A DNA stretch of 64,000 bases from Alphaproteobacteria bacterium (GCA_021774625.1 JAJFIV010000031.1:64180-128179); one strand, 5' to 3'. Shown: positions 14,850-42,573, counted from the stretch's first letter. Notes: a model not told the origin generated them from the sequence alone. Made by a program: numbers and translations.

Positions 14850-15314
14850 ATGATTTCATTTGCGGTCAATGGCAGTACGCATAATTTCGATGGCGATGAG
14901 GATATGCCGCTTCTGTGGTTCCTGCGGGAAGATGCGCAGCTGAAGGGAACCAAATTCGGCTGCGGCATTGCCCAGTGCGGGGCATGTACGGTGCATGTGG
15001 ACGGCGAGGCCATGCGGTCCTGCTCTATTCCGGTGGGATCGCTGAATGGCGCCCGGGTTACGACAATTGAAGGTCTGGCTGAAAATGGCGCGTTGCACCC
15101 GGTGCAGCGCGCCTGGCTGGAAGAGGATGTCCCGCAATGCGGCTACTGCCAGGCGGGCCAGATCATGGCGGCCGCTGAATTTCTGCAGAATTATCCGGAA
15201 CCGACCGATCATGATATCGACGACAATATCACCAATCTCTGCCGTTGCGGCACTTATGTAAGAATCCGCAGGGCCATCCACCGGGCGGCACAATTGATGA
15301 AGGCGGAGGGCTGA
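14850..15314 (+). CDS. (2Fe-2S)-binding small subunit of a molybdopterin oxidoreductase (IorA / aldehyde oxidoreductase small-subunit-like)
   Basis: The two cluster motifs are [16 protein letters not shown] and [10 protein letters not shown]...LCRCGTY. Confidence 0.85.
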
Positions 15315-15318
15315 TCCG

Positions 15319-17559
15319 GTGGCGGTTTTTGATCTTTCCCCTGACCGCCGTACGTTCCTGAAAGTCTCCGCTGTGGGTGGCGGGCTCATGATCTTTGCCC
15401 CGCAGTTGTCTGGCGCCAAACCGGCAGAGGCCGAAGGCGACGGTCAGATTGGTCTTTATGTGAAAATCAACTCCGACAATTCCGTCATCATCGGTAGCCC
15501 CGGCAGTGAGATTGGTCAGGGCACCCAGACGTCGCTTCCCATGCTGGTGGCGGAAGAGCTGGACGTGGATTTCGCGGCGGTAGAGACGGAACTCATGCCT
15601 TTCCTGACAGGGGCCGGCGAAAATGGACGGCCGCAGCAGCTTGCCTTTACATCCGGCGCCGGTGGGAGCGATGCAATCTGGGGTAGTTATGATGGAGCCA
15701 GACAGGCCGGAGCTGCGGCCCGGCACCTGATCCTGCGAGCAGCGGCAAGAAGGTTTGATGTGCCAGTCGCTGCGCTTTCGACGGAAAAAGGCACCGTCCG
15801 GCATGCGGCCAGCGGCCGTTCGCTGACTTATGGCGAACTGGCCGCCGATGCGGCGAGGGAAAGCCTTCCCGAGGGTGAATTGCCGTTGAAGGAACGTCGT
15901 GACCACACCATTATCGGTAAGCCGCAAAAGCATAAGGATGTGCGGGCGATTGTCACCGGCGAGCCGCGTTTCGGTATTGATCAGGACTATCCGGGGGCGT
16001 TGCATGCGGTGATCGCCCGCTCGCCCTATCTGGACGGCAGGGTGCGCAATGTTGACGATAGCGCCGCCCGCGCCATGCCCGGTGTCCGGCATATCGTCGC
16101 TATTGCCCGGCCCGGTCCCGGTGAAAACCCCGCCCTCAACAATCTGGCGGCCGGTGTTGCCGTTGTTGCGGACAGCCTCTGGATAGCGATGAAGGCCCGC
16201 GATGCGTTGCGGATTGACTGGGCGCCAGGGCCAGTGCGCGAAGACAGCCGCGCCGAATATGCCAAAGCGTATGAGGCCCTGAAGGGCCGCGGCCAGGTCG
16301 TCCATGAGGACGGGGCGTTCGATCGGGCGCTGGATCAGGCGGCGCAGGTGGTGGAAGCGCAGTATGAGGTTCCGCTGGTTTCCCATTCTCCGTTGGAGCC
16401 GCAAAATTGTATCGCCGATATACGCGGCGATTGTGTCACGATCATAGCGCCCACCCAGTCACCGGGCCGGGCCGCGCGGCTTGTTGCAGAAATTGCCGGT
16501 GTTGACCCATTGTCAGTCGAGGTCAGGGTTGTGCGGTGCGGCGGCGGGTTCGGGCGGCGGCTCTATCAGGACCCTGTTGTCGAAGCCGCGCTGATTTCCA
16601 AAGCCATCGGCAAGCCGGTCAAGCTGCAATGGAGCAGGGAAGACGATATGGCCCATGATTTCTATCGCCCCGGCGGCATCCATCACATGATTGCCGGGCT
16701 GGATGGAAATGGCCGGGTCACCGCCTGGGCACACCGGCTGGCGAGCCACAGCCGGATTTTCCGCGAGGCGGACGCGGCCGAAGGTTTCTGGCGATCAGAA
16801 CTGGTCCCCGATGATTTTCCAGGGCAACTGATCCCGAACTACCGGATGGAATATTTCTACCTGCCCTCTGCTGCTCCCCGTGGTTTTTGGCGGGCGCCTA
16901 TTTCCACTTCCAATGCCTTCGCCGTACAGAGTTTCGTTGATGAAGTGGCTGCTGCATCGGGGCAGGACCCGTTGGGCCTGCGACTTGCCTTGCTGGGCGA
17001 TCAGATGCGCGATATCCGCTACGATAATCACGGCGGACCGAACTGGAATCCGGGCCGCATGGCTAATGTTGTCAAAAAGGCTGCCGCCGAAGCCGGCTGG
17101 GGCGAAAATCTGCCCGGTGGAAAAGGCAGGGGCCTTGCCTTCCATTTCACCTTCGGCACCTATGTGGCGCAGATTGCCGATGTCACTGTACAGAGCAATG
17201 GCTCCTTCAAGGTCGAACGGGTCGTGGCTGCCGCCGATTGCGGCATTCCGGTCAATCCCAACGGCATCCGGGCGCAGATGGAGGGCGGGGTTAATGATGC
17301 TCTGTCAACGGCTCTGGGGCAGGAAATCACTATTCGTGACGGTCAGGTGGAACAAGCCAATTTTGACACCTATGATATGATGCGGATCGACCGGTCGGTA
17401 GCCAATGTTGATATGCATATCGTTGAAAGCGGTGGGCCGGTGCGGGGGATGGGCGAACCGCCCGTGCCGCCGCTGGCGCCTGCCGTTACAAATGCACTTT
17501 TCAATGCCACCGGCAAACGGATCCGCAAACTGCCGATCCGTGATCAACTCAGGTCTTAG
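15319..17559 (+). CDS. Molybdopterin-binding large subunit (IorB-like), Tat-exported
   Basis: 746 aa with a GTG start and the twin-arginine leader [20 protein letters not shown]. The C-terminal block [29 protein letters not shown] is typical of this family. Confidence 0.85.
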
Positions 17560-18740
17560 ACCACCTCGAACAGCCCCGCTGCTCCCATACCGCCGCCGAC
17601 GCACATGGTGACCACCACATATTTGACGCCGCGTCGTTTGCCCTCAATGAGGGCATGGGCGGTCATGCGCGAGCCGGACATGCCATAGGGATGGCCGATG
17701 GAAATGGCGCCGCCATTAACATTGAGATTTTCATTGGGGATGCCGAGCGTATCGCGGCAGTAAAGCACTTGAACGGCGAAGGCTTCATTCAGTTCCCACA
17801 GGCCGATATCGTCCATTTTAAGCCCGTTGGCTTTCAGGACTTTGGGTACGGCAAAAACCGGACCGATACCCATTTCATCGGGCTCGACCCCGGCAACGGC
17901 TATGCCGCGGTAAATGCCGAGCGGTTCCAGACCCCGTTGTTCCGCCAGTTTGCCATCCATCAGGACACAGGCGGAGGCGCCGTCGGATAACTGGCTGGCG
18001 TTTCCTGCGGTGATGCTGGTCTCCGGCCCGATCACCGGTTTTAAACTGTTCAGGCCTTCCAGGGTCGTATTCGGTCGATTGCCTTCATCCTGTTCCAGCA
18101 GGACTTCCTTGTCGCTGATTTCCCTGGTTTCCTTGTCCTGCACCTTCATGACAGAGGGCATCGGGACAATTTCATCGTCGAATTTGCCATCGCGCTGTCC
18201 GGCTGCCGTCTGCTGCTGGCTTTGCAGCGCATACTCATCCTGCACCTCGCGGGAGATGTTATAGCGCTTAGACACCACCTCGGCGGTTTCCAGCATACTC
18301 ATATAGATATGGGGGTGTTTTGCCTTCAGTTCGGGATCCGCCGCCCGGTACATATTCATTTTATCATTCTGCACCAACGAGATAGACTCAAGCCCGCCGC
18401 CGACAACAACTTTCATGCCGTCCGTCAGAATTTGTTTTGCGGCGATGGAAATGGCCATCAGACCGGAAGCGCATTGCCGGTCAACGCTCATCCCCGCGAC
18501 CGTCACCGGCAATCCGCCGGCAAGGGCGCATTTCCGGGCAATATTCATGGCGGTGGTTCCCTGCTGCATGGCGGCGCCCATAATCACATCGTCAATTTCC
18601 GCAGGGTCGGCTTTCGATCGTGCGACAGCCTGTTCGACGGCATGACCGCCTAGCCGGGACGCATCCGTGTCATTAAAAGCGCCGCGATAAGCGCGGCCGA
18701 TGGGCGTGCGGGCAGTCGAAACAATAACAGCGTCGGACAT
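17556..18740 (-). CDS. Acetyl-CoA C-acyltransferase (thiolase)
   Basis: [17 protein letters not shown], the active-site Cys block QCASGLMAI, then GHPYGMSG and CVGGGMG. The ORF track extends to 18770, and I prefer Met11. Its stop overlaps the convergent IorB-like stop (TTAG). Confidence 0.9.
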
Positions 18741-18773
18741 GGAGGGTCTCCCAGGATCAAAAAACGACAATTG

Positions 18774-18838: not shown

Positions 18839-20731
18839 CTATACTTCCCGGAACAGGGCACCGAACAATGCGTAATTGACTTCTGCGGCTTCGATAATAG
18901 CTTCAACATCTTCATCATTGGTCATGCTATTCACCATATCCTTGAAGTGATGCACATGATCCATATCCATGGTTCCATGGGAGCCTAGGAAGCTGAAACC
19001 CGCTCCATCATTCACGCCAATGCGATGAGCTACAAGCGCGGATACCCGTGCGGCATATTTTGCGGAAATTTCCTCCAGGGAATGAATCATGCCAAGAACC
19101 CCATAGGGATTCCGCCTTTCCGCAATATAATAATTATAACCGATCATGGCCTGAACCGGGATGGCTGGTTTGGAATTCACGATTTCATCCACGTCGCCCC
19201 CAAGAGCCTTGATATCGTTCAAAACCCATAATTCATGGCCTTTTTCTTCCGCGATGTCGTGATAAAGCGCATACCGGAGATCGCGTTTACTATCGTCGCA
19301 ACGGGCAGCTGCCGCCGCCATAGTAGGGCAGAAATGCCAGACAATATGATAAAGCTGTTCCAGGAAGTCTAGATACTCTTCCCGTGACATGCCCTCACTC
19401 AGCAGACGTTCGACACCGGGTTGCAAAACAAGGGATGCCTTGGCTTCCGCTGTTCCCTCCAGAATGCGGTCATAAACCGAGTTAAACGAGCGGTTGGCGG
19501 GCATAGCCCTTTTTTCCTTCAGGCTATGCGGAAACGCAATTTTGGTTTTTGCCAGATGCAACACTGACGCTTTAATTTCGGATTGATCATTCATCTTTTG
19601 TACTTTCCCGGGACTGGTTTCTTTTGGTCCAGAAGATATGTGCGGGGCCTCCCAAATGTTATCTTCCTTATGCGTGTTTTTTATTTCACGGACGGGCTTC
19701 ATTTCTGCCCTATTTTCTTCATTATCCGTCCCGTCGCGCTCAGACCGTTCAATCTGTGCTTTGGCCAGACGGCGCATTTTACGGATATCTAATTCGCTCA
19801 AATTCATGGCCGTATCGACCCAGCGGTCGCCGACCCGGAGCAGTTCCTCCATCGTAACCGGGTTACATTGCCGCCTTATATTATATAAAGTCTGATGAGC
19901 GTCGAATCGTTTATCGAACTTTTTCAGGTAGCCATAGAGAGCCTCCTCACCCTTGCCCTTATCTGCAAGCACATCAACGATGCCAAGTTCATGCAGATAT
20001 TCCGCCGGGTACAGCCGGCCTGAAAAAATCATTTCTTCCGCAATCATTGTGCCAGCTTTTCTTGAAAGCAAACTATAAGCCCCCATTCCTGGAAAGAGGC
20101 CAAAGAGAATTTCAGGAAATCCGAATTGGGCCCCACGTTCGGCAACCACCAGATCATTAACAAGCACAGCTTCGAAGCCGCCGCCGAGAGCATCGCCCTG
20201 GATCAGGGCAATGGTGATGATCGGAGCGGCCATATTAGTGTGATTGAGATGCGCGATCTCAATACAGGAATAAGCGTATTTCTGCATTCCTTCACGGTCT
20301 TTCTCATTCAAAAGATCGACAAAATGAAGAAGATCGCCGCCCATATTAAAAATATTTTTCTTACGGGACGCCCAGATCAGATACTTCAGGGCGGCATCGT
20401 CCACCTGCCTTCCATCGACAAACATGGAGCCGACCGCTTCATGAACAGACTTGATGTCTGCAATCAGAGTATTGGTGAAATTGGGTCGCTCCGTGTGCTT
20501 TTTAAAGCACCATAGGGCGGAATATTTATCTTCATATTCAATATCGAGTTCCGTAAGATGACTGAGGTTATGGGCTTTACGGAACTCCTGCGCGGGCCAT
20601 GACGGATCGTTAACGGCTTTTTGTGAGAGTGTGCCCATCTTCAAGGCAGTATTCCCGCCAATCAGATTCCAGATATTCTCCGCCCCTGCTTCTGTAAGCT
20701 TTTTGCGAACCGCCATTTTGCCCCTTACCAC
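18839..20731 (-). CDS. Fusion: RpfF-type DSF synthase (crotonase) domain plus heme-oxygenase-like diiron oxidase (HDO) domain
   Basis: 630 aa. Crotonase blocks are NIFNMGGDL, ALIQGDALGGGFEA and GFPEILFGLFPGMGAYS, with E187/E207 spaced 20 residues apart. A charged linker spans residues 327-410. The C-domain carries E496-x2-H499, E553/E554 and H585-x3-D589-x2-H592. Confidence 0.8.
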   Translation of the reverse strand: MVRGKMAVRKKLTEAGAENIWNLIGGNTALKMGTLSQKAVNDPSWPAQEFRKAHNLSHLTELDIEYEDKYSALWCFKKHTERPNFTNTLIADIKSVHEAVGSMFVDGRQVDDAALKYLIWASRKKNIFNMGGDLLHFVDLLNEKDREGMQKYAYSCIEIAHLNHTNMAAPIITIALIQGDALGGGFEAVLVNDLVVAERGAQFGFPEILFGLFPGMGAYSLLSRKAGTMIAEEMIFSGRLYPAEYLHELGIVDVLADKGKGEEALYGYLKKFDKRFDAHQTLYNIRRQCNPVTMEELLRVGDRWVDTAMNLSELDIRKMRRLAKAQIERSERDGTDNEENRAEMKPVREIKNTHKEDNIWEAPHISSGPKETSPGKVQKMNDQSEIKASVLHLAKTKIAFPHSLKEKRAMPANRSFNSVYDRILEGTAEAKASLVLQPGVERLLSEGMSREEYLDFLEQLYHIVWHFCPTMAAAAARCDDSKRDLRYALYHDIAEEKGHELWVLNDIKALGGDVDEIVNSKPAIPVQAMIGYNYYIAERRNPYGVLGMIHSLEEISAKYAARVSALVAHRIGVNDGAGFSFLGSHGTMDMDHVHHFKDMVNSMTNDEDVEAIIEAAEVNYALFGALFREV

Positions 20732-20824
20732 TAATAGTGTTTTATATCGTTCGTTTGCTACTTCCTTATTCTAACAGTATTTCTCCAGCTTTGTGAACCA
20801 CTTATTCATACTTTGTTAAGCATC

Positions 20825-20852
20825 TGGTTCTAGTAATAGTAGGATGGTTCTA
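20825..20852. promoter_or_regulatory. Direct repeats TGGTTCTA-N12-TGGTTCTA in the AT-rich divergent promoter region
   Basis: Exact 8-mers lie at 20825-20832 and 20845-20852, 20 bp apart. Degenerate copies are GGTTTTCCTA at 20871 and GAGTTCTTA at 20892. Confidence 0.3.
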
Positions 20853-20953
20853 AAAATATTAAAATTTCAAGGTTTTCCTAGGCTTGAGCTGGAGTTCTTA
20901 GATTCAGCATTTGATGATTTGGGCCATGCAGGGCGGTAAAATTGTGAGGCCGG

Positions 20954-22543
20954 ATGTCTTATATCATAATAGTTGATGACCGTGTAACGAATCGGAAGAT
21001 TTGGGCGCAAATGGCCGCCAAGGTCGAAGACGATGTTGAGATTGAGACATTTTCCAATCCGCAGGAAGCGCTGGAACGGGTCCAGCGTAAAATCCCTGAT
21101 CTCATCATAACAGATTTTAAGATGCCCGAAATGGATGGCGCGGAATTCATCCGTCGGTTCCGCAAACTCAGATTTTGCGTTGATGTGCCGGTCATCGTTG
21201 TTTCGGTCTATGAGGATAAAGAATTCCGTTATGAGGCCCTGGAGGCTGGTGCAACGGACTTTCTGATGAGCCCCATCGATCAGTATGAGTTCCGGACCCG
21301 CGCCCGCAACCTGCTGATTCTGCGCCGGCAGCAGGAATTACTGAAGAAAAAGGCAAGCTCGCTCGAAAATGAGCTTGTTTACTCGCTCCGAAAACACCGT
21401 CAGGCGATGCATGGAAGCCGGCGGCAGCTGATTACGGTGATCGATACGGTTCCGGCCATGATTTACGCGGCGGATACCGAAGATACCTGTCTTTTTATTA
21501 ATCAGTATGCGGCAAATTACATGGGCGGCGATTCTGTTGATTTTGTCGGCAAATCCCTGAGCGAGGTTTTTGGAACCGAAAAGGCTGAACGGGATGCAAA
21601 ATTTGACGCAGATATTTTGACTCATAGGGAGAGCCTTCCCAGTTATGAAGAAGTTTTTATTGATCAATATGGCGTTTCACGAACCTTTTTGACCACGAAA
21701 TCTCTTCTTAAGGACCCCGAGGGGGGGGAGGATACAGTCATAACGGTATCCATGGATATTACACCCCGCAAGCTGATGGAGGATGCGCTCAGAACGGCCA
21801 AGGAGGCCTCAGAGGCGGCGAACAGGGCAAAGACCGAATTTCTTGCCAATATGAGCCATGAACTAAGGACACCATTGAATGCCATTATCGGCTTTTCCGA
21901 CTTGATGCTAGAGGGAAAACTGGGGCCACTCGGCAATGACCGCTATTCGGAATATGCCAATGACATTAATTCCAGCGCCCGCCATCTTCACGGCATTATT
22001 AACGATATTCTTGATCTGGCTAAAATTGAGGAAGGCAAGCTCGACCTCTATGAGGAAGAGGTCAAACTCAAGGATATGATGCTGGAATTGACCCGTATGC
22101 TCTCAGATGAAGCAGCACGCCGCAAAATTTCACTTGAAACAGATATTGATGAAAATTTACCGAATGTTCTGGCCGACGAAAACAAAATCAAGCAAATCAT
22201 TTTAAATCTGCTCTCTAATGCTGTGAAATTCTGTAAGGCGGAGGGGCGGATATCCGTTACTGCAGAACTACTTTATGATGACTGCATCCAGATATCCGTC
22301 CAGGATACCGGGATTGGCATGTCTGAAGAGGAAATTGCTGTCGCCAGGTCCCGTTTTGGCCAGGTGCATGATGATACACATACAAAACCTTATCCAGGAA
22401 CCGGGTTGGGCTTGCCGCTTTCCATTGGATTGATCGAGTTGCATGGCGGTACACTTGAAATTTTCAGCGAGAAAGGAAAGGGTACAAAGGTTGCGATTGT
22501 CTTTCCTTCGGCAAGGACATGTTTGCCGGCTGAAGCGCAATAG
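20954..22543 (+). CDS. Cytoplasmic REC-PAS-histidine kinase
   Basis: The N-terminal receiver is IIIVDD...DLIITDFKMPEMDG, followed by a central PAS-like region. The H-box is MSHELRTPLNAIIGFSDL and the ATPase blocks are LLSNAVKF, DTGIGM and GTGLGLPLS. No TM segments are present. Confidence 0.85.
   Translation: MSYIIIVDDRVTNRKIWAQMAAKVEDDVEIETFSNPQEALERVQRKIPDLIITDFKMPEMDGAEFIRRFRKLRFCVDVPVIVVSVYEDKEFRYEALEAGATDFLMSPIDQYEFRTRARNLLILRRQQELLKKKASSLENELVYSLRKHRQAMHGSRRQLITVIDTVPAMIYAADTEDTCLFINQYAANYMGGDSVDFVGKSLSEVFGTEKAERDAKFDADILTHRESLPSYEEVFIDQYGVSRTFLTTKSLLKDPEGGEDTVITVSMDITPRKLMEDALRTAKEASEAANRAKTEFLANMSHELRTPLNAIIGFSDLMLEGKLGPLGNDRYSEYANDINSSARHLHGIINDILDLAKIEEGKLDLYEEEVKLKDMMLELTRMLSDEAARRKISLETDIDENLPNVLADENKIKQIILNLLSNAVKFCKAEGRISVTAELLYDDCIQISVQDTGIGMSEEEIAVARSRFGQVHDDTHTKPYPGTGLGLPLSIGLIELHGGTLEIFSEKGKGTKVAIVFPSARTCLPAEAQ
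21721..21728 (+). repeat. G8 homopolymer inside the REC-PAS-kinase CDS
   Basis: Read directly (ga gggggggg ag, encoding PEGGED). Confidence 0.9.
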
Positions 22544-22554
22544 CGTCGATTGCA

Positions 22555-25152
22555 ATGGACAAGTCAGTAAAATCCAGCCGCAAACCGACGATGTTAAGAA
22601 GGGCTGTTTATCTTCTGAAGCGGGCCAAACACCAGCAATCTCTTGAATTCGAACAATTACTGATCCGCTACGTTATTTTTATGTTTTGTACCGGTTACGT
22701 CCTGACCATGGGGATTTCATTTGCTGAACTGACTGACGATGAAATATCCTCTTCATTTCTTGTTTCCCTTTTCGGCAATACATTCAATACCATCCTTTTT
22801 ATCCACCTTTTGCTTAGGCCCTTAAAAACACACTTGCGCCGGGTTGTTGGCTTGATTGTCGATGTCGTCTCCTTGACCCTCTTCATTAAATTCGGAGCGG
22901 AGGTCGCGAGCCCATTTGTTGCTATTTATATATGGATCACAATGGGTTATGGATTCAGATTTGGTGTGAAATATCTGTTTTCTGCGACCACACTATGCGT
23001 GCTGGCCTTTTCTTATATCATTGCGACAACGCACTTCTGGCAGCAATATTTTGCCCTTTCCGTCGGTCTTTTGATGTCGCAGGTTATCCTGCCATTTTAT
23101 TTTGCAACGCTAATAAAAAAATTGACGGAAGCCAAAGCGCAGGCGGAACAGGCCAATGCTGCCAAAAGTCAGTTTCTTGCGACTATGAGCCACGAGCTGC
23201 GAACACCGCTGAACGCCATTATCGGCTTTTCCGATGTTTTGCGGTCATCGAAATTATCCGGCGATCAGAGACAGATGGTGCGCTCCGTCGGGTCCGCGGC
23301 CGGCGCGCTTTTACATCTGATGAACGGTCTTCTGGATTTTGCCCGGATTGAATCCGGCAAGGTCAGCAAGGTGAGTGAACCTGTGGACCTCCACAAATTG
23401 CTGGCCAGCATCGAATCCATCATTCTTGCACAGGCGAAGCACAAAGGCCTTGGCCTGTCATTCTCCCTTTCCCCTTATGTGCCGCCGCTGGCTGTTGGCG
23501 ATTTTCAGCATTTACAGGAGATTCTGATCAATTTATGCGCCAATGCGGTTAAATTTACCGAAAGGGGGTTTATTTCCGTTCATTTGGATCTTCAGCCTGC
23601 GGCGACCGGCAATGGTCAAAATATCCGCTTCAGCGTGACCGATACCGGTGTGGGAATTCCCAAAAGCCAGCAGGAGCATATATTCGAGAGCTTTACCCAG
23701 GCCAAGGAAACCCGAAAAAGTTCGCATGGCGGGGCCGGTCTCGGGCTCGCCATTTGTAAGCATCTGGTTGAGCTTATGGGCGGAGAGATCGGCGTCGAAA
23801 GCACTCCCGGGCAGGGCAGTATGTTTTATTTCACCGTTCCTCACCAGAAAACCGCTTCTGCAGGGCAGGGGGATCAGCTGGTTTTCGCGCCGGATCAGAT
23901 TTTTTATATATCTAATCAGGTGGAAGACCGTATCACCAACAGAATAGCCGGGCTGGGTTTGGATACGTTTATCATATCCGATGTCGGCAAGGCTGTGCGG
24001 ACGGTTATTGAAAAAGTCGCGGATAACGGTCTCAGGCCGGTCGTCGTAATTGATTGCCGTGATCCGGCCGTTGATATCTCTCTGCTGGCCAATCAGTTTG
24101 CTCAGGAACGTCTGTTGTTTGATCCGGTCCTGATTGCTGTCGCCGATGCCGCCGATGCCGATATGAAGCGGTTTTTGGATCTTGAGTGTTTGCTGGCCGT
24201 CCTAACGGACAATGATACTGACCAGGCTTTAAGGAATATCTTCAGAATGGCCTCGGCGCTCGTCTCGGAACAGGCTGCTGACTTGGAGGGGCGCGCCGAG
24301 AATTCACGGCACAGCCGGAGCCTGAACATTCTTGTCGCAGAAGACAATCGGGTCAACCGCATGGTTGCCGCCAAGATACTGGAGCATGTCGGCCACAAGG
24401 TTTTTCTGGTCGAAAATGGCGAACAGGCGCTGGATGCCCTTGATCATGATGAATTTGATCTTGTTTTCATGGATATCAACATGCCGGTTATTGATGGTCT
24501 GGAAGCGACCCAGCTTTACCGCTATTCGCATCCTGACGAGCCGCATCTGCCTATCGTTGCGCTGACGGCGGATGCCACCGAAGAAGGTAAAAGGCGCTGC
24601 TATGAGGCGGGAATGGATAAAGTGATCCATAAGCCGGTCACGACCGATATGTTTCTTGATGTGATTGAAGCGCTGGTGCCGCAGATAGAGCGCCGGGACC
24701 GGGAAGGGCTTGCAGACACCGGGGCCGCTGCCGGCAATGCTGTTAATGTTGAAACGCATCCGCGTTTCCAGAATGCCAAAGCCGCTATTCTTGATCCTGA
24801 AAAACTGAAAGAACTGAGGACATTAGGCGAAGGCAGCGATTTCTTTGAAACTCTGATGCGGGATTTTGCCGAGGATGCCCGGATTCTGTCCGATGAATTG
24901 GAAAAATCGGTCAACGGGCGCGATGTTCCGGCCTTTCGCGATGCCAATCATGCGCTGCGCAGCGCCGCCGCCAATATAGGCGCTTTGCGGATATTTAATT
25001 TATGCGACAAAACAGGCGGGATGAAGCGCGAGGAAATCCCCGTCAAAGGCCCCCAATTTATCGCCGCCCTCAAAGAAGAATTATTGCTGGTGACCAAAGA
25101 GATCAGCGACCTCCACCACGAGCCCCCGCTGGAACTCGATCCCATTGCATAA
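22555..25152 (+). CDS. RpfC-like membrane hybrid sensor kinase (multi-TM, HisKA, HATPase, receiver-like, REC, HPt)
   Basis: 865 aa. There are about 5 hydrophobic helices in residues 35-185. The H-box is MSHELRTPLNAIIG (H213) and an ATPase block is GGAGLGLAICKHL. The receiver is ILVAEDNRVN...DLVFMDINMPVIDG and the HPt motif is NHALRSAAANIGA (H799). It starts 11 nt after the preceding kinase. Confidence 0.85.
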   Translation: MDKSVKSSRKPTMLRRAVYLLKRAKHQQSLEFEQLLIRYVIFMFCTGYVLTMGISFAELTDDEISSSFLVSLFGNTFNTILFIHLLLRPLKTHLRRVVGLIVDVVSLTLFIKFGAEVASPFVAIYIWITMGYGFRFGVKYLFSATTLCVLAFSYIIATTHFWQQYFALSVGLLMSQVILPFYFATLIKKLTEAKAQAEQANAAKSQFLATMSHELRTPLNAIIGFSDVLRSSKLSGDQRQMVRSVGSAAGALLHLMNGLLDFARIESGKVSKVSEPVDLHKLLASIESIILAQAKHKGLGLSFSLSPYVPPLAVGDFQHLQEILINLCANAVKFTERGFISVHLDLQPAATGNGQNIRFSVTDTGVGIPKSQQEHIFESFTQAKETRKSSHGGAGLGLAICKHLVELMGGEIGVESTPGQGSMFYFTVPHQKTASAGQGDQLVFAPDQIFYISNQVEDRITNRIAGLGLDTFIISDVGKAVRTVIEKVADNGLRPVVVIDCRDPAVDISLLANQFAQERLLFDPVLIAVADAADADMKRFLDLECLLAVLTDNDTDQALRNIFRMASALVSEQAADLEGRAENSRHSRSLNILVAEDNRVNRMVAAKILEHVGHKVFLVENGEQALDALDHDEFDLVFMDINMPVIDGLEATQLYRYSHPDEPHLPIVALTADATEEGKRRCYEAGMDKVIHKPVTTDMFLDVIEALVPQIERRDREGLADTGAAAGNAVNVETHPRFQNAKAAILDPEKLKELRTLGEGSDFFETLMRDFAEDARILSDELEKSVNGRDVPAFRDANHALRSAAANIGALRIFNLCDKTGGMKREEIPVKGPQFIAALKEELLLVTKEISDLHHEPPLELDPIA

Positions 25153-25282: not shown

Positions 25283-26485
25283 CTATTGGCTTGGCGAAGC
25301 CGAAAGCGCCGCTTCCAGTTGCTGTACGCGCATTTTCAGAAACTCGGCTGCCGGATGGTTTTGCTCACCGGCCAGTTTTTGGGCGCGCACAGCGGCATCG
25401 CGTGCCTGCTCCAACTGCCGGTCCGCCGCCAGCATGCCGGAAAGATTGGCGAAGGCCTGCCATGAGTCAGGGTAATCGGCGGCATTGATTTTGAGAATTT
25501 CAATGGCGCCTTTTATATCGCCCCTTTGCTGGGTCACGGCGGCAAGCGTGTTCACGGATTTTTCCGCCGACAGTTTGTAGCCGTATTTTCTTTCCGAGAG
25601 ATCCTCATAATAGGCTTTTACAGCTGTGACGCCGTTCTGGAACACCGCCGAATCGCCGGCAAGCGCAAGGTCGGAAAAAATCTGCCGCAGCGCTTCATAG
25701 ATCGCCGCGCCCGGTGCAGACATATGCGAATGACCGGCAATGATTTTGCTCTGCCATTCAAGCCCTTGCGGCGCACTTGCCTCAATCACGCTGACCAGCT
25801 TGTCATAGTGCGGACGCAGGTTGCCTTCGTCGTCACCGAGACTGAGTTCGAGCGTGACCGGCAGACGCTCCGTATTTTCAAAATAACGCCCGGCGCGCGC
25901 CAGCAGACCTTCATCGCTCTGATTGGCGATAAGGTAGGGACTGACGGCGATATAGGCACCGAATAAATCCGGCTCCGTCATCATTGTGTCCAGCACAAAA
26001 AGCCCGGCGAGCGAGTGCCCGGACAGGACCCGGAACGGCTGTGTCCGGTAGGTCCGGTCAATATAAGGGATGACCTCTGAGGAGATGAATTCCCTGAACA
26101 GCGCGGCTCCGCCACCGGCGCCATTCGGCATTTTGGCGGCGGTCAGATCGCGCCCCCGCGACGTTGCGGTGTTGGGGATGGCGACGATGATCATTTCCGG
26201 TATTTCGCCGGCGCTCTGGCTGAGCCAGTCAACCATGCCGCTGACCAGGGAAAAATGCGTCTCGCCATCCAGGGTGTAAAGAACCGGGTAGCGGGTGTCA
26301 GGAGACGTCTGGTAGCTTTTGGGCAGGCTGACGATCAGGTCCCGCTCTTCTCCCAGGGGCTGGGAGTTTATGCTGATCCGATCACCGGCAACAACCGGGT
26401 TCTGACCGGTATTTTCGGCAGCCAGCGCGGCCGAAAAAAGAGTGAGTGAGAGTGCTGCGCAAAATGCGCATAATCTGTAAAACAT
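25283..26485 (-). CDS. Secreted alpha/beta hydrolase (putative esterase family) with C-terminal TPR-like region
   Basis: It has a signal peptide. YPVLYTLDGE and the nucleophile elbow GHSLAG are present, and the helical repeat tail is ..GDIKGAIEILKINAADYPDSWQAFANL.. Confidence 0.7.
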   Translation of the reverse strand: MFYRLCAFCAALSLTLFSAALAAENTGQNPVVAGDRISINSQPLGEERDLIVSLPKSYQTSPDTRYPVLYTLDGETHFSLVSGMVDWLSQSAGEIPEMIIVAIPNTATSRGRDLTAAKMPNGAGGGAALFREFISSEVIPYIDRTYRTQPFRVLSGHSLAGLFVLDTMMTEPDLFGAYIAVSPYLIANQSDEGLLARAGRYFENTERLPVTLELSLGDDEGNLRPHYDKLVSVIEASAPQGLEWQSKIIAGHSHMSAPGAAIYEALRQIFSDLALAGDSAVFQNGVTAVKAYYEDLSERKYGYKLSAEKSVNTLAAVTQQRGDIKGAIEILKINAADYPDSWQAFANLSGMLAADRQLEQARDAAVRAQKLAGEQNHPAAEFLKMRVQQLEAALSASPSQ

Positions 26486-27690: not shown

Positions 27691-30600
27691 TCATTTCTGG
27701 ACCGGGCCCTGGTCCTGATACCAGAGCTTTGGCAGAGTTTTTTGACGGGGCCACAGTTCCTCCAGCGTGTCATCATCATAGAGGCGGCCATTCATCATCA
27801 CCCGGTGAATGTCGGCGGTATTCTTGAGATCGCTGCGCGGATCGGCATTCAAAATCACCAGATCGGCAAACTTGCCGGGCTCGATAGATCCCACTTCATC
27901 GCCATGTCCGATAATATGCGCGCCGTCTATCGTCGCGGCTTTTAAGACCTCCATCGGGGTGGCGTTGCCCGACCCCAGAGCCCACATTTCCCAGTGATAG
28001 CCAAGCCCCTGGAACTGGCCGTGACTGCCAATCCCGACCTTGCCGCCGGCGCGCTGTACCGCAATCGCGCTATCGGCCACCCGGGTGAAGGCATATTCCT
28101 CGGTTCTGACCCACGGGCGGCGCTTGGTTGACTGGTCAAGCACATTATGCGGCATAAAACGGTTCATCTTGACATTATCGTGCGGGTTCATTGTGGTATA
28201 AAAGAAATTCTCCCCCCACGGTCCGCCATAAGTCACCAGAAGGGTTGGCGTATAGCCGATCCCGGTCTGCGCGGCCAGTTCGACGACGTCCTTGTAAAGC
28301 GGGATGATCGGCAGATTATGTTCGTTACCGGCAAACCCGTCAATCATATGGGTGAGGTCAAGCTTGGCATCCAGCCCGCCCTCGGTCGTTGGCATAATCC
28401 CGACTTCTTTAGCGGCTTCGATCACATACTGGCGCTGTTGCCGGTTGCCCGTCAGATAGGCCTTGATATTTTTCGTGCGGTAATGGTCCTTATAGCGGGT
28501 CAGCACTTTGACCGCCTGTTCCTTCGATTTGATGACCGTATCGGAGAACACGCCAGGACCCGTTGACCACGCCCGTAAACCGATCATCCGGCCGGCTTCC
28601 ACCATATCCTGAAAGACAAAAATATCGGTGGTGCCGGTTTGCACATCAAGGCCGCTGGTGACGCCAAAGGCCACATTTGCCAGAAACGGCCAGAAATACT
28701 CCTCTATGACATCATTGCGTGACCAGTTGCGCCAATGGCCGTGACTGTCGACAAAGCCCGGAGTGATAAACTTGCCGGACATATCGCGGATTTCCGCGCC
28801 ATTCGGCACGTCAAGGCTGCCGCGTGCGCCAACGGCCGCAAACCGGCCGTCAGTGATCAGCAGATCGGCATTTTCAATAACACCCTGCCCGCCCATCGTA
28901 ATAACGGTTGCTCCCTGAAGCAGGATAGTCCCTTGCGGATGATCGCGCGGCACAACCACATCCGCCTTATAGCTTTTGTATGGCTTCGGCTTTTCTTTTT
29001 CCTCCGCCTCAGCGTCAGCCTCGGCATCGGCGGAATCCCCGCCCTGCGCAGCCGCTTCGGCGTCTTCGGCATTTTCTTCGCTCTTTTCGGGCTTCACCCA
29101 TTCAACATCGGCAAGCGCCTGCGTGTAAATGGTGCTGCCGACCGACCAGATGATGCTTTTTCCATCCTTGGACCAGTCAAAATAATCCACGCCGTAATCC
29201 GAAAGGGTATTGAGCGGCAGGACCGGCCCGCCAAGATCAACCGTTACCGCCTCGCGGTTTACAGTTGGCACAGCGATAAGCTGCAACTGTTCCTGAGACC
29301 TGGCGAGCGCATAACGGCCGTCAGGGCTGAGACGGATATCGCGCGCAGGCACCGGCTTGGTCGCGGAATAGAAACCGACGCCCGTTACCTTCAGGTGTTC
29401 GCGCCGGTCGGTGCCGTCAAGCCGGACAGAAAACAGCCCGCCCGGCCCGCCATACAGATAAACCCGGTCCCTGGCGTTGCCGAAATGCACCGTTCCAAAC
29501 TGGTTGCCGGACAAAATAACCCGCGGCGCCCCGGTTTCTATATTCAGGGCAATCAAGTCACGCTGGGCATTTGCATCTCCGTCATTAAACTGGTCGTTGG
29601 AGGCTCGAATCACAACGATTTCATCGCCTGCCGGTGTGAAATTCGGCTCGGAATAATAGCCGGGGACCTTGCTGATTCGTTCCGGCCGCGACCGGCCGTC
29701 GGCGCGCATGCGCCACACATGGCCGCCATCCGCTGTCCAGCTGACAAATGTCAGATAGCGGCCATCCTGCGACCAGCCTGGCTGGAAAATCTGCGTCCCG
29801 GCCCGGGCTATTTTCGCCGGTTTGGCATCCGCCGCCAAGGTCATTGAATACAGCTCACCAAGCGCCGAGAAAACCACCGAGTTGGCGTTCGGAGATAAAG
29901 CCGGTTTCTGGATCATCCGTGCCACTACCGGGCCTTTTGGATCCCTGGTCTGATTGATCAGATCCGGTCCCACATCCATTTTCACCTTGGCCGTGAAGGG
30001 AATATTGGTGCGCCTGCCGTCGGCAATGCTGATCCGTTCTATTTTACCGCCGCTGGTGGTGATAATCGCGCTGCCGTCCGGCGTGAAACTATAGGCCGGC
30101 AGCAGATCGCGCGTGGCCCGGGATTCCTGATCGTCCCGCGTGATGGGATAAGCCAGCCAGCGGTCCTCGCCGGTTTCCAGATTCCGCACCCGGAAACCAC
30201 TATCGGTTTCATGCCTGGTGCCGTAAACCAGCATTTTACCGTCCGGCGATATTTGCGGGCGCACGGCGCCGCCATAGGCTGTCACGATCGTGTCCGTGGT
30301 GCCTTCCTGCAAATCCCGCCGCACGATACTCCAGGGAAAGCCCGTCATATTATACTGAAAGCCGCCCAGCCGGGTCGCGTAATAGAGGTAGCGGCCGTCT
30401 TTCGATACCGAAACGCCCTGCGCATTCGGCTGCTGGTCCCGCGGCGTCTCATCCCCTTTTGGAAGGGAATTGGTGATCTGAATACCCTTGCCGCCATGCT
30501 TGTGATACATCCAGATTTCATTGGCGCCGATCCCGTTTGAAAGCTGGGAAATGAAAATATAATTGCCGTCGGCCGACCAGGCCGGACTCATGCCCTCGCC

Positions 30601-31131
30601 TTTGGTCATTGAGGAGAGCTTCTTCGGCTCGCTGCCGTCCGCATTGGCTATATAGAGATTCTCCGACCCGTCCTGATCCGAGAGGAAGGCGATCTGTGCG
30701 CCGTCCGGTGAATAAACCGGCTGACTTTGAAATGCTATGCCGGTGACGAGCGGTGTGGCTTCGCCGCCGGTTGCCGGCAGTGTATAGATATCGCCCAGCA
30801 ATTCAAAAATGATGGCGCCGCCGTCAGGCGAAACATCCAGCGACATCCAGGTCGCTTCATCGGTTTCAAATTCAACGCTGCGTTCAGCCTTCAGCGGCAA
30901 ACCCTTTTTCTTGTCTTTCTTGCCACCATTTGCTGTGGCGTCATCGTCTTGCGCCCATGCTGCGACAGGAGGTTCCACCCAGATTTCAGAGACCGCGTCG
31001 CTTTGCGGCGGAAAATCCTGGGCTGCTGTTGCCGGGGCAAGCAGAAGACTGCCGGCAAAGATAACGGCAATATTTCTTTTGTAGGATGTTTCGATTGGCA
31101 CGTCTGTTCCCTCCCCGGGTAAATGTCTCAT
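27691..31131 (-). CDS. Periplasmic TolB-like beta-propeller (PD40 repeats) plus amidohydrolase fusion protein
   Basis: The N-terminal two-thirds carry repeated S/W-PDG motifs (SPDGAQIAF, SADGNYIF, SKDGRYLYY, SPDGKMLVY, TPDGSAII, SQDGRYLTF, SPDGRYAL, SKDGKSII). An acidic linker follows. The C-terminal amidohydrolase has FVDSHGHW and ..ADLVILNADP... The preferred start is MRHLPG (31131, with an SD-like gaggt). The ORF track extends to 31254. Confidence 0.8.
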   Translation of the reverse strand: MRHLPGEGTDVPIETSYKRNIAVIFAGSLLLAPATAAQDFPPQSDAVSEIWVEPPVAAWAQDDDATANGGKKDKKKGLPLKAERSVEFETDEATWMSLDVSPDGGAIIFELLGDIYTLPATGGEATPLVTGIAFQSQPVYSPDGAQIAFLSDQDGSENLYIANADGSEPKKLSSMTKGEGMSPAWSADGNYIFISQLSNGIGANEIWMYHKHGGKGIQITNSLPKGDETPRDQQPNAQGVSVSKDGRYLYYATRLGGFQYNMTGFPWSIVRRDLQEGTTDTIVTAYGGAVRPQISPDGKMLVYGTRHETDSGFRVRNLETGEDRWLAYPITRDDQESRATRDLLPAYSFTPDGSAIITTSGGKIERISIADGRRTNIPFTAKVKMDVGPDLINQTRDPKGPVVARMIQKPALSPNANSVVFSALGELYSMTLAADAKPAKIARAGTQIFQPGWSQDGRYLTFVSWTADGGHVWRMRADGRSRPERISKVPGYYSEPNFTPAGDEIVVIRASNDQFNDGDANAQRDLIALNIETGAPRVILSGNQFGTVHFGNARDRVYLYGGPGGLFSVRLDGTDRREHLKVTGVGFYSATKPVPARDIRLSPDGRYALARSQEQLQLIAVPTVNREAVTVDLGGPVLPLNTLSDYGVDYFDWSKDGKSIIWSVGSTIYTQALADVEWVKPEKSEENAEDAEAAAQGGDSADAEADAEAEEKEKPKPYKSYKADVVVPRDHPQGTILLQGATVITMGGQGVIENADLLITDGRFAAVGARGSLDVPNGAEIRDMSGKFITPGFVDSHGHWRNWSRNDVIEEYFWPFLANVAFGVTSGLDVQTGTTDIFVFQDMVEAGRMIGLRAWSTGPGVFSDTVIKSKEQAVKVLTRYKDHYRTKNIKAYLTGNRQQRQYVIEAAKEVGIMPTTEGGLDAKLDLTHMIDGFAGNEHNLPIIPLYKDVVELAAQTGIGYTPTLLVTYGGPWGENFFYTTMNPHDNVKMNRFMPHNVLDQSTKRRPWVRTEEYAFTRVADSAIAVQRAGGKVGIGSHGQFQGLGYHWEMWALGSGNATPMEVLKAATIDGAHIIGHGDEVGSIEPGKFADLVILNADPRSDLKNTADIHRVMMNGRLYDDDTLEELWPRQKTLPKLWYQDQGPVQK

Positions 31132-31315
31132 TCTGACCTCAAAAGCTGCAGAAACCCTAGCGGCCCATTGAGCCGAGTTCAAATATAATTTGGCAAGGTC
31201 ACAGGAAAGTTGGCGGCCATGGAAGATAAAAAGTTTACAAGACTGTAATTTCATTCATAGTTTCCATGTCTGCCAGATGACGGCTGGAACATTCCGGGGG
31301 TATGGGGAGCGGTTG

Positions 31316-36489: not shown

Positions 36490-38334
36490 GTGAAATTGGG
36501 GGGAACTGTAATGGCGCCGGGCCGGGCCATCGCCGACAAAGGGAATGATCGCGGAGCCGTGAGCTCCATGGTCGGACTTATCTGGAAAACGCATTTCATG
36601 CGCTATTACCACATCACGTTGTGGGCCATGGCGCTGGCGGTGGTGACAAGCTGGGCAACTGCTTTCCTCTGGTATCTGGCAACCATCGCAGGCGCCTGCA
36701 TCCGCTCCGTGCTTGAAAAGAAAATGCAGAAAAAGGCGCAGTCCGGAAATTTGCCGGCTTCCTCACACTGGGCCTATCCGCTGATCGCCACCTTCGCCAA
36801 TTCCTTCTGGGCCGTGGCCCCATATCTCGCCTGGACCGGCGGGCATCCCTATGGAGAAATGCTGGCGGTCATCCTGCTGGCCTCCGGCTATATGCTGGTC
36901 ACAACGCAGTTTCGCGGTTTCCCTAAATATATACTCCTGTTCGGCTCGCCCTATACACTCGTGATCGTTTATCTGCTGGCACTCGAAGTGAACGCGCCGA
37001 TTTTCTGGCCGTTCGCGGTGGGTCTTGTGGCGCTCTTTTCCGCCAAATATTTTGCGATCGTTTATGGATCATTGGCTCACCGGCAGATTGTTGAAGGTCA
37101 GGCGGCGCAGGATAAGCTTATCAAGGAGCTGGAAAAAGCGCGGGACGAGGCCGAGGCAGCCAATAAGGCAAAATCCACTTTTCTGGCGATGATCAGTCAT
37201 GAACTTCGCACCCCGATGAATGGAGTCTTGGGAGCCGCAAGGCTGCTGGCAAGATCCGACCTGAACAAGGACCAGAGGGACCATCTTTACATTCTTGAAG
37301 CTTCCTCCAGTTCGCTGATGACCCTGCTCAATGATATTCTCGATTTTTCCAAGATTGAGGCCGAACGCCTGACTTTTGAGCGAATTGAGGTGGATATCAA
37401 GGCGCTGCTGGAAAGGCTGGCCGGCGCGTGGCGGGGGATTGCCGCGGAAAAAGGCCTGACGTTTGACATGGCGATCCCGGATACCTTGCCGGGGCGGGTA
37501 ATGTCTGATCCGACACGAATCTCCCAGATTCTTCATAATCTTTTGTCGAATGCCGTCAAATATACACCGGAGGGCATTGTTCGCTTTGAGGCGCATGTCA
37601 GTGATCAAAATGATCGAAATATCGAATTGACGGTCCATGTGAAGGACAGCGGCCCTGGTATCAGGCGGGATGATTTGCAGCGTTTGTTCCAGCCCTTCGA
37701 GCAACTGGATGCGTCCCGCACCCGCACCCATGGCGGCACCGGTCTCGGTCTGGCGATTGCCCGGCAGCTTGCGAATAATATGGGCGGGGATATCCGGGTG
37801 GAATCAGAAGAGGGCAAGGGTTCGGTCTTCACCGTCATATTCCGGTTTGATGTCGTGGATTGGGCGACCGGCGCCGCCGGGGAGAATGCTGCCGACGTTA
37901 CAGGCGCGGTTTGCGCCATCCCCAAAAGGATTCTGGTGGTTGAAGACCATCCGTTGAACTGCAAACTGATAGAAAGCTTCCTTGTGCCTCTTGGGCACCG
38001 GCTGACTTTTGCCAATAATGGCCGGCAGGCGCTTGAGGCGCTGAGAGACACCTGTTTTGACGTGATTCTGATGGATGTCCACATGCCTAAAATGGACGGA
38101 TTGGAAGCAACCAGGCTTATTCGCGCAGGCGATTCCGCGAATGCCGGGCGGCCCATCATTATGCTGTCCGCCGGCGCCATGGCGGAGGAACGCAAGGAAG
38201 GCATGAAAGCCGGGGCCGATACCTATGTCACCAAGCCCATAGATCCCGATGAACTGGTTGCGGCCATTGAGCGGTTTACAGAGGATAAACCGGGCCAACC
38301 AACACGATCCGAGCCGGAGACAGTCGGCCCTTAA
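36490..38334 (+). CDS. Membrane hybrid sensor histidine kinase / response regulator
   Basis: Multi-TM N-terminus. The H-box is [14 protein letters not shown], the ATPase blocks are DSGPGI and GTGLGLAIA, and the C-terminal receiver is [10 protein letters not shown]...[14 protein letters not shown]. Confidence 0.85.
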
Positions 38335-42120: not shown

Positions 42121-42573
42121 ATGATTACCCTGTCTGTCAATGGCGAGGAACGGGAGTTTGACGGCGACCCGGAAATGCCGCTTTTGTGGTATCTGCGTGA
42201 TGAACTTGGTTATACCGGCACAAAATTCGGCTGCGGCGCAGGGCTATGCGGGGCCTGTACGGTGCATCAGGACGGGGTCGCAACCCGGTCCTGCATGACG
42301 CAGATGCTGGATGTGGATGGGGTTGCTATCACCACAATCGAAGGTCTGAGCAAAGACGGCAGCCATCCGGTTCAGCTTGCCTGGATCAAACATAAAGTGC
42401 CCCAGTGCGGCTATTGTCAGGCGGGACAGATCATGCAGGCGGCTTCCTTATTGGCGGAAAATTCCAATCCGAGCGATGAGGATATCGACACGGCCATGTG
42501 GGGCAATATCTGCCGCTGCGGCACCTATCAGCGGGTCAGGGCGGCCATCAAAACAGCGGCGGGAGACCTATGA
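42121..42573 (+). CDS. (2Fe-2S)-binding small subunit, second IorA-like copy
   Basis: [16 protein letters not shown] and [10 protein letters not shown]...ICRCGTY. It shows an ATGA overlap with the next gene. Confidence 0.85.

Follow-up and report, generated by a model that had tools for sequence, protein, structure and literature searches.

We analyzed a 64,000-nucleotide stretch of DNA from an alphaproteobacterial assembly (Alphaproteobacteria bacterium, GCA_021774625.1, JAJFIV010000031.1:64180-128179; the whole stretch is called the window here) and examined one long open reading frame (ORF) in it, which an earlier note, made from the sequence alone, had read as a diffusible signal factor (DSF)-family synthase fused to a diiron oxidase. 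The results showed that the ORF joins an RpfF-clade crotonase to a heme-oxygenase-like dimetal oxidase (HDO) domain, and that the same pair of functions recurs, fused or as neighboring genes, in clusters that carry RpfC-like sensor kinases. We favor, with a probability of roughly 55%, the reading that the oxidase tailors the product of the crotonase into a modified signal, so that the protein would be a two-step signal synthase. The existence of the fusion ORF and of its two domains we regard as practically certain.

Translation gave one uninterrupted frame of 630 codons beginning with GTG, as the earlier note had described. The ORF itself was thus real, but the note had omitted its strand, which is the minus strand, and had read the maximal ORF from its first codon. 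Translation probably begins at the ATG at position 20716, which yields a protein of 625 residues, because M6 is invariant across all 17 fused proteins (described below), because a Shine-Dalgarno-like AAGGGG sits 4 nt upstream, and because the identical database protein P0001 is 625 residues long. Residues 1 to 45 were disordered in the full-length AlphaFold model.

The N-terminal half belongs, by its sequence and predicted structure, to the DSF synthases. Pfam ECH_1 matched residues 111-254 (E = 3.4e-22), and this half passed the NCBIfam crotonase-family model PRK08788 with 324.9 bits against a cut-off of 177. The four best PDB chains by sequence were all DSF synthases, namely RpfF of Xanthomonas campestris (3m6m, E = 5.8e-49), RpF-1 (7zq7, 5.2e-48), Cronobacter RpfF (6dgn, 5.2e-45) and DfsA (5fus, 1.9e-44), and ordinary enoyl-CoA hydratases appeared from about 1e-14. 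The domain was confidently folded in the full-length model, and the best 12 Foldseek matches were again all DSF synthases, with a template modelling (TM) score of 0.89-0.92, a root-mean-square deviation of 1.8-2.6 Å and E from 5e-17 to 8e-15; ordinary hydratases began at 7e-9, and DspI of P. aeruginosa stood at 4e-8. The RpfF-type reading of this half therefore held (6e-49 to 2e-44 for DSF synthases in round figures), and sequence and structure both spoke against an ordinary beta-oxidation hydratase, the outcome that would have counted against it. Two glutamates, E187 and E207, aligned with the catalytic glutamates of RpfF 3m6m (in GGGFEA and LPEVLF), which we take to be E141 and E161, also 20 residues apart, and both were invariant in the 17 fused proteins. 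The motifs NIFNMGGDL, GGGFEA (with E187) and FPEILF (with E207) were found at residues 126, 183 and 205, where they had been placed before.

Compared with the DSF synthases as a group (X. campestris RpfF, 3m6m/3m6n; Burkholderia cenocepacia DfsA/Bcam0581, 5fus; Cronobacter RpfF, 6dgn; RpF-1, 7zq7), the window protein has the same crotonase fold, with 31-35% identity in structural alignments and about 39% identity to X. campestris RpfF over 218 aligned residues. It has in common with them the glutamate pair 20 residues apart, GGGFEA, PE(I/V)LF and an adjacent RpfC-type hybrid kinase gene; unlike them, it is extended at the N terminus by about 50 residues and carries an oxidase domain of about 210 residues. 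On the NCBIfam RpfF equivalog model NF053515 the crotonase half scored 201.5 bits, below the cut-off of 550, and by the NCBI criterion it is RpfF-like, or of the RpfF clade, and not an RpfF orthologue. The partner crotonase of the beta-type clusters described below scored alike, with 217.7 bits on the RpfF equivalog and 338.6 bits on PRK08788.

The crotonase is followed by a charged linker in which 33% of the residues are D, E, K or R and the predicted local distance difference test score (pLDDT) fell below 50. A charged linker at 327 to about 410 had been proposed; we place it at residues 335-416. It could not be aligned among homologues, in which both its length and its sequence vary, and the full-length model gave no confident arrangement of the crotonase relative to the oxidase domain (predicted TM score, pTM, 0.50).

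We then analyzed the C-terminal half. Pfam Haem_oxygenas_2 (PF14518) matched residues 455-620 with E = 2.6e-21 and 76.6 bits, where the gathering score is 28.9, so that the two Pfam domains, ECH_1 at the N terminus and Haem_oxygenas_2 at the C terminus, came out as predicted. An AlphaFold model of the domain, built from 33 domain homologues (alignment A2), was all-helical, with pLDDT 90.6 and pTM 0.87. Foldseek against the PDB placed this model nearest to 3dde (Sden_3740, function unassigned; TM 0.87), then to CADD (0.82-0.84) and UndA (0.77-0.81), the two proteins against which the earlier note had proposed to compare it; TenA proteins gave 0.68-0.79 (top-ranked about 0.77), and heme oxygenases, HrmI and PqqC came lower (PqqC 0.62-0.79). 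A profile search with the oxidase domain gave 3dde at 1e-19, CADD at 1e-6 and MboA at 1e-4. The best solved-structure match, 3dde, comes from a structural genomics project on Shewanella denitrificans and is 22% identical; it shares with the window protein the residues EE-x-GHE, E and H-x3-D-x2-H and is a stand-alone protein.

Most HDOs are defined by a set of three histidines and three carboxylates (3His/3carboxylate) on three core helices (PMC13108848). The corresponding residues of the window protein, E496, H499, E553, H585, D589 and H592, were invariant in all 33 domain homologues and kept in 16 of the 17 fusions, the exception being P0017. In the profile alignment, E553, H585, D589 and H592 fell on CADD E142, H174, D178 and H181; CADD E81/E82 aligned with E495/E496, and CADD H88 with W502. 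The histidine of the first helix lies at i+3 (E496-x2-H499), which is the UndA-type ExxH, and not at i+7. The motifs EEKGHE at 495, LEEIS at 552 and SHGTMDMDHV at 584 were all where the earlier note had put them. Its proposal of E553/E554 as a ligand stood for E553, which aligns with CADD E142 and is invariant in A2, but not for E554, which is not invariant although no fewer than 90% of the 17 fused proteins retain it. These alignments and the model support assignment of the oxidase half to the HDO family with a predicted 3His/3carboxylate dimetal site, the ligands being aligned by sequence and profile.

Three narrower identities were considered for this domain. Pfam PF03070 (TENA_THI-4) scored a marginal 23.8 bits (cut-off 22), 53 bits under PF14518, and the TM scores of TenA and PqqC were below those of 3dde and CADD. 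A TenA- or PqqC-type protein without metal ligands, the finding that the earlier note had named as telling against this half, was accordingly rejected, since four of the ligands also align with those of CADD; the names 'PqqC' and 'TenA' on relatives are automatic labels. CADD itself (CT610 of Chlamydia trachomatis, 1rcw/8va9), a self-sacrificial p-aminobenzoate synthase, is the closest characterized HDO by profile and fold, but it has Ex6H where the window protein has ExxH. Its K152, presumably the amine donor, aligns with V563, so that a self-sacrificial reaction of the CADD type is unlikely; its tyrosines Y43 and Y47, which we take to form the radical-transfer path, align with F456 and L460. 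A CADD-like p-aminobenzoate synthase was rejected on these three replacements.

The third protein, Pseudomonas UndA (4wwj/6p5q), converts lauric acid to 1-undecene. It has the heme-oxygenase-like helical fold in common with the window oxidase, as well as the order E-x2-H, E and H-x3-D-x2-H, and a fatty-acid-type substrate is plausible for the window oxidase as well. The ligands of UndA, as the earlier note numbered them, are E101, H104, E159, H194, D198 and H201. Of these, D198 alone was confirmed as a metal ligand (PMC7848743). The window domain is about 40 residues shorter than UndA, and the 2-enoic acid expected as its substrate is without the sp3 C3-H that UndA attacks. UndA was absent among the phmmer and profile matches even at E up to 10, leaving a likeness of fold only. 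The oxidase half may thus work like UndA but lies outside the UndA family.

The helix that precedes the first ligand helix carries the sequence LYH(I/V)VWHFCP (residues 460-469, window about 19330-19360, minus strand), in which H462, W465, H466 and C468 are conserved. By an estimate from UndA residue spacing only, it may correspond to the auxiliary helix lining the substrate sites of UndA and SznF, and its candidate roles are an extra ligand, substrate binding or redox chemistry. HDOs of the N-oxygenase type have an extra carboxylate on the auxiliary helix (3H/4C), and those of the C-H-cleaving type have none; by sequence alignment (A1 and A2), no conserved acidic residue was found in this preceding helix (450-477). 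R486, Y490, N533 and Y534 are invariant as well.

We next asked how often the two halves occur together. Both were carried by 17 protein clusters (at 90% identity), the window protein included, and the other 16 fused homologues were 43-55% identical to it along some 90% of its sequence. At the level of 50% identity, fused clusters numbered three only (P0007, P0015 and P0017) in a set of 1.84 billion representatives. Nine fused loci, from about four distinct lineages, showed no in-frame stop between the halves. A missed stop or a chimeric assembly was therefore rejected as the source of the fusion, and the concern that the linker might hide a stop or frameshift was relieved by the absence of a stop and by the 16 homologues fused likewise. 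The fusion is real but rare. A search for genomes with the halves as separate adjacent genes, as had been suggested, found four relatives with such co-directional pairs (L006, L015, L016 and L094), with an overlap of 4 bp between the members of the pair in L094. The fusion, seen beside these split genes, acts as a Rosetta stone for the pair. One fused protein, P0017, has a degenerate oxidase half: ExxH is changed to SAKGFSD and LEE to MDD, and the H585-H592 segment is deleted, with the helical domain otherwise kept.

With the oxidase domain alone as the query, 915 relatives were found, mostly stand-alone proteins of 213-250 residues with 46-69% identity. A scan of one genome per GTDB species showed that 298 genomes encode a relative of the oxidase, and we took a tblastn census of the best 80 loci, which all came from metagenome-assembled genomes and mostly from Burkholderiales or Betaproteobacteria. 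An RpfF-like crotonase lay within 3 kb of the oxidase gene in 77 of the 80 census genomes; in the other three, the contig ended less than 850 bp beyond the oxidase gene. RpfC-like kinase was present in 67 of the 80, and the full layout, with REC-HD-GYP (RpfG-like), RpfC-like, oxidase and convergent crotonase genes, in 55. Over 83 loci, the identity of the crotonase and that of the oxidase to the window copies were correlated (Pearson r = 0.95); these loci are related, and the value shows co-inheritance only. The census showed RpfF-like and RpfC-like genes to be near-obligate genomic partners of this oxidase subfamily.

A different setting was seen in Thiohalorhabdus methylotrophus (L007, 9597-12381), where a stand-alone oxidase with 53% identity adjoins a bacterial globin gene and lies two genes from a ferrochelatase gene. 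No crotonase or kinase was found near this oxidase, and the oxidase subfamily is therefore not exclusively rpf-linked.

The genes around the fusion also point to an rpf-type system. Divergent from the fusion gene are a soluble REC-PAS histidine kinase without hydrophobic segments and an RpfC-like hybrid sensor kinase. The latter has about five N-terminal hydrophobic segments (residues 35-187), a gap of about 16 residues and a HisKA domain from 203. In Xanthomonas RpfC, five transmembrane helices are followed, after a juxtamembrane segment of 16 residues, by DHp-CA, REC and HPt (PMC5391125). The REC domain of the window kinase found the REC of RpfC (3m6m_D) as its third-best PDB match (2.3e-23); the name RpfC-like rests on this match and on the architecture. 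The membrane input domains of these kinases are homologous to one another whether the cluster is fused, split or of the beta type (34-43% identity, E = 1e-35 to 1e-55). Both kinases flank the fused gene in L001-L005 (about 53% identity) and the split pair in L006, and the REC-PAS kinase was kept at the same position in fused and split alpha-type relatives (L001-L006, L011 and L013-L016; 43-57% identity). The fusion gene and the two kinase genes (18839-25152) have a GC content of 0.48-0.51, against 0.57-0.61 for the flanking thiolase, molybdenum-hydroxylase and esterase genes. This low-GC block of three genes suggests that the module was probably acquired together, horizontally, the fusion gene and both kinases having arrived as one unit.

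In Xanthomonas, rpfGHC is convergent to rpfF, and rpfF-rpfG-rpfC clusters were also noted in Methylophaga, Leptospirillum, Thiobacillus and Methylobacillus (PMC4504480). The beta-type relatives share this xanthomonad layout of rpfG-like REC-HD-GYP, rpfC-like and convergent rpfF-like genes; the clusters described here differ from it by the extra oxidase gene, which is fused to the synthase or lies between rpfC and rpfF, and by having no adjacent rpfB or rpfH. In alpha-type clusters, that of the window included, a REC-PAS kinase replaces the HD-GYP regulator RpfG of the DSF systems. The earlier note had spoken of a signal from the protein alone; an adjacent RpfC-like kinase, and split pairs within rpfG/rpfC/rpfF-type clusters of many genomes, strengthened that reading. 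Taken together, these data make it very probable that the fusion belongs to an rpf-like signaling module.

The proposed mechanism would run as follows. The crotonase would take a 3-hydroxyacyl-acyl carrier protein (ACP) from fatty-acid synthesis, dehydrate it and hydrolyze the thioester. It would thereby release free medium-chain acids, namely a cis-2-enoic acid and, through general thioesterase activity, saturated or 3-hydroxy acids as well. The oxidase, held to the crotonase by about 80 flexible linker residues, would bind two metal ions through the six residues named above, activate O2 and oxidatively modify the free acid. The RpfC-like hybrid kinase encoded next to the fusion, embedded in the membrane, would bind the modified product as its ligand and signal onward through the REC-PAS kinase. 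We infer the order of the reactions, the action of the oxidase on the crotonase product and the type of reaction. RpfF and Bcam0581 dehydrate 3-hydroxyacyl-ACP and cleave the thioester to give cis-2-enoic acids, and they also give saturated free acids by promiscuous thioesterase activity (PMC4504480). The characterized HDOs use mostly free fatty or amino acids (PMC13108848), and UndA binds the substrate carboxylate on Fe1 (PMC7848743); a crystal structure of UndA with beta-hydroxydodecanoic acid exists (4wx0).

The candidate reactions are UndA-like C-C cleavage/decarboxylation, desaturation and hydroxylation. Carboxyl-proximal, C-H-cleaving chemistry was ranked first because the ligand set is of the six-ligand 3His/3carboxylate type. 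Decarboxylation of the co-released saturated or 3-hydroxy acids is possible, as would be a desaturation like that of MboA; allylic hydroxylation of the cis-2-enoic acid, which would allow lactonization, is possible too. In P. fluorescens, 1-undecene made by UndA is described as an aerial communication molecule (PMC10614000), which provides a precedent for an HDO product as a signal. We suggest only tentatively, at somewhat less than even odds, that the product would be a new signal chemotype, for example a hydrocarbon left by oxidative decarboxylation, or a cis-2-enoic acid that is 4-hydroxylated and would spontaneously cyclize to a butenolide, sensed by a dedicated clade of RpfC-like kinases.

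Several observations weigh against a tailoring oxidase. Strict UndA chemistry on DSF is unlikely because a cis-2-enoic acid has no sp3 beta-hydrogen (C3-H). No RpfG HD-GYP regulator was found in the window cluster or elsewhere in the window. P0017 retains its oxidase domain despite the lost metal ligands, hinting at a non-catalytic role. Crotonase relatives without an HDO (L092 and L093) sit with the same kinase types, so that a module can work without the oxidase. Finally, the oxidase gene of the common beta-type layout is co-oriented with rpfG and rpfC and not with the synthase gene, which fits turnover or perception of the signal equally.

The last point leads to the possibility that the oxidase serves signal turnover or housekeeping: it would destroy the signal, or clear the free saturated fatty acids released by the RpfF thioesterase, for example by decarboxylation to volatile alkenes, and so replace RpfB, the acyl-CoA ligase of Xanthomonas. 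In the 55 census genomes with the full layout the rpfG-rpfC operon has the oxidase as its last gene, and the synthase gene runs convergently toward it. The substrates of UndA are saturated C10-C14 acids, and the saturated fatty acids that the RpfF thioesterase releases are counteracted by RpfB (PMC4504480). No acyl-CoA ligase gene lay beside the crotonase in the loci whose gene tables were inspected, a systematic search for an RpfB substitute not having been made. It would be pointless, however, to join a synthase covalently to an enzyme that degrades what the synthase makes; four fused lineages and translationally coupled split genes better fit sequential catalysis, and the HDO-less clusters work without an oxidase. 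We consider turnover unlikely.

It is also conceivable that the oxidase domain is regulatory, gating the crotonase or its interaction with the RpfC-like kinase by O2, iron or redox state. The ligand-free domain kept in P0017 would fit such a role, and Xanthomonas RpfF is regulated by binding the REC domain of RpfC (complex in PDB 3m6m), a precedent for control of the synthase at the protein level; in many HDOs the metal cofactor is labile (PMC13108848). The six ligands kept in 16 of 17 fusions and in every domain homologue are instead the pattern of a working catalytic site, and no purely sensory HDO is described in PMC13108848 or PMC7848743, the literature not having been searched specifically for one. 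We give a sensory domain about one chance in ten at our own estimate, which makes it quite improbable. That the pair serves lipid or hydrocarbon biosynthesis and not signaling, with kinases nearby by regulatory coincidence, is the least probable explanation: a thiolase gene directly downstream in the window, an MMPL lipid-transporter gene downstream in some relatives and the lone Thiohalorhabdus oxidase would agree with it, but the thiolase is at host GC (0.574) and not conserved in relatives, most census genomes carry the RpfC-like kinase or even the full layout with RpfG-like REC-HD-GYP, and the sensor's membrane input domain accompanies the pair in clusters of both the alpha and the beta type.

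The coordinates of the fusion gene, its domains and predicted catalytic residues, and the adjoining kinase operon are collected in the table.

Table. Coordinates in the window of the fusion gene, its parts and the neighboring kinase genes
Feature	Position	Strand	Basis or remarks
Fusion gene, maximal ORF	18839..20731	minus	630 codons from GTG, uninterrupted; stop codon 18839-18841
RpfF-clade crotonase domain, residues ~50-334	19730..20584	minus	Pfam, NCBIfam, PDB sequence and Foldseek matches
Catalytic Glu codon E187	20171-20173	minus	Codon translated
Catalytic Glu codon E207	20111-20113	minus	Codon translated
Disordered charged linker, ~82 residues (335-416)	19484..19729	minus	pLDDT <50 in full-length AlphaFold model
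HDO domain, residues 417-630	18842..19483	minus	PF14518, AlphaFold, Foldseek
Predicted ligand codon E496	19244-19246	minus	Translation
Predicted ligand codon H499	19235-19237	minus	Translation
Predicted ligand codon E553	19073-19075	minus	Translation
Predicted ligand codon H585	18977-18979	minus	Translation
Predicted ligand codon D589	18965-18967	minus	Translation
Predicted ligand codon H592	18956-18958	minus	Translation
Divergent intergenic region, AT-rich (GC 0.37)	20732..20953		Between fusion gene and kinase operon
Soluble REC-PAS-HisKA-HATPase histidine kinase, 529 residues	20954..22543	plus	Divergent from fusion gene; no hydrophobic segments
RpfC-like hybrid sensor kinase, 865 residues	22555..25152	plus	HisKA-HATPase-REC-Hpt

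A promoter-like site for the fusion gene lies in the divergent intergenic region (20797-20768, minus strand) and matches the consensus at 10 of 12 positions, which is not above shuffle expectation. Two genes bordering the block were considered as members of the cluster and rejected. The thiolase gene directly downstream (17556-18770) encodes an ordinary acetyl-CoA C-acyltransferase, and its host-like GC and lack of conservation in relatives, given above, spoke against a pathway partner; the esterase gene (25283-26485) was set aside on the same two grounds, host GC and no conservation in relatives. Other genes of the window are apparently unrelated: molybdenum-hydroxylase loci at 14850-17559 ([2Fe-2S] and molybdenum cofactor (MoCo)-binding subunits) and 42498-44813 (MoCo-binding subunit), and a further hybrid histidine kinase at 36490-38334. 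At 27691-31254, on the minus strand, a 1187-residue protein with PD40 beta-propeller repeats and a C-terminal amidohydrolase domain is encoded at host GC, in a gene not conserved near the fusion gene in relatives.

Some relatives carry further genes beside the pair. A gene for an MMPL/RND-type transporter lies directly downstream of the fused gene in L001-L005 (12308-14635) and L013 (8746-10998), with 54-100% mutual identity; it may export a lipophilic product, and the window is without an equivalent. A block of LuxR, LuxI, a 58/59-residue ORF and PhyH (an iron/2-oxoglutarate dioxygenase) was seen beside the crotonase and oxidase in two separate lineages, at L094 4171-8756, in L095 and at about 14680-17350 in L001-L004; the six genes are co-directional in L094, and the block does not occur in the window. 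It could mean a link between signals of the acyl-homoserine lactone and DSF types, or a common acyl precursor. In L092 and L093 the crotonase adjoins an RpfC-like kinase and a REC histidine kinase; near it are genes for an alpha/beta-hydrolase or thioesterase and for SnoaL-like, PNPOx-like and penicillin-amidase-family proteins, which may be alternative tailoring or quenching enzymes.

Additional domains were also found on other RpfF-like crotonases. P0308, P0365 and P0344 have a C-terminal S-adenosylmethionine-dependent methyltransferase. Of P0399 and P0332, one has an N-terminal PF10118 'metal-dependent hydrolase' domain, and one a weak N-terminal match to a piece of the soluble acyl-ACP desaturases (E = 1.7e-4, under the Pfam cut-off). 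These architectures support the idea that a synthase plus a tailoring enzyme is a recurring design of RpfF-like crotonases. Separately, P0367, P0117 and P0274 have N-terminal extensions of 170-370 residues without a Pfam match.

Both parts of the fusion belong to known families; their covalent and genomic coupling, and the signal that it implies, are the new elements. In the literature we found no paper linking rpfF, DSF or crotonase to HDO, diiron, PqqC, TenA or iron-containing redox enzymes, and a 2026 mini-review of HDOs contains no occurrence of quorum, fusion, fused or enoyl. DSF-family signaling has so far been defined by one chemistry, that of cis-2-enoic acids made by RpfF alone, and reactions are known for about a dozen HDOs only, out of more than 10,000 (PMC13108848). 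Through the fusion, an uncharacterized HDO subfamily acquires a probable class of substrates (free acids that RpfF releases), a physiological role in signaling and a cognate receptor, so that enzymology and signaling both become directly testable. The pairing occurs in at least 77 species-level genomes, all metagenome-assembled, which would explain why model organisms have not yet shown it, and its recurrence suggests an unrecognized class of signals in soil bacteria. The parallel fusions to methyltransferases and other domains suggest that diverse signals may be reached from the RpfF scaffold in a modular way. If the pair does make a new signal chemotype sensed by its own clade of RpfC-like kinases, the system would be a third, O2-dependent branch of DSF-family signaling that couples cell density to oxygen availability, with a wide distribution among uncultured Burkholderiales of soil and some Alphaproteobacteria.

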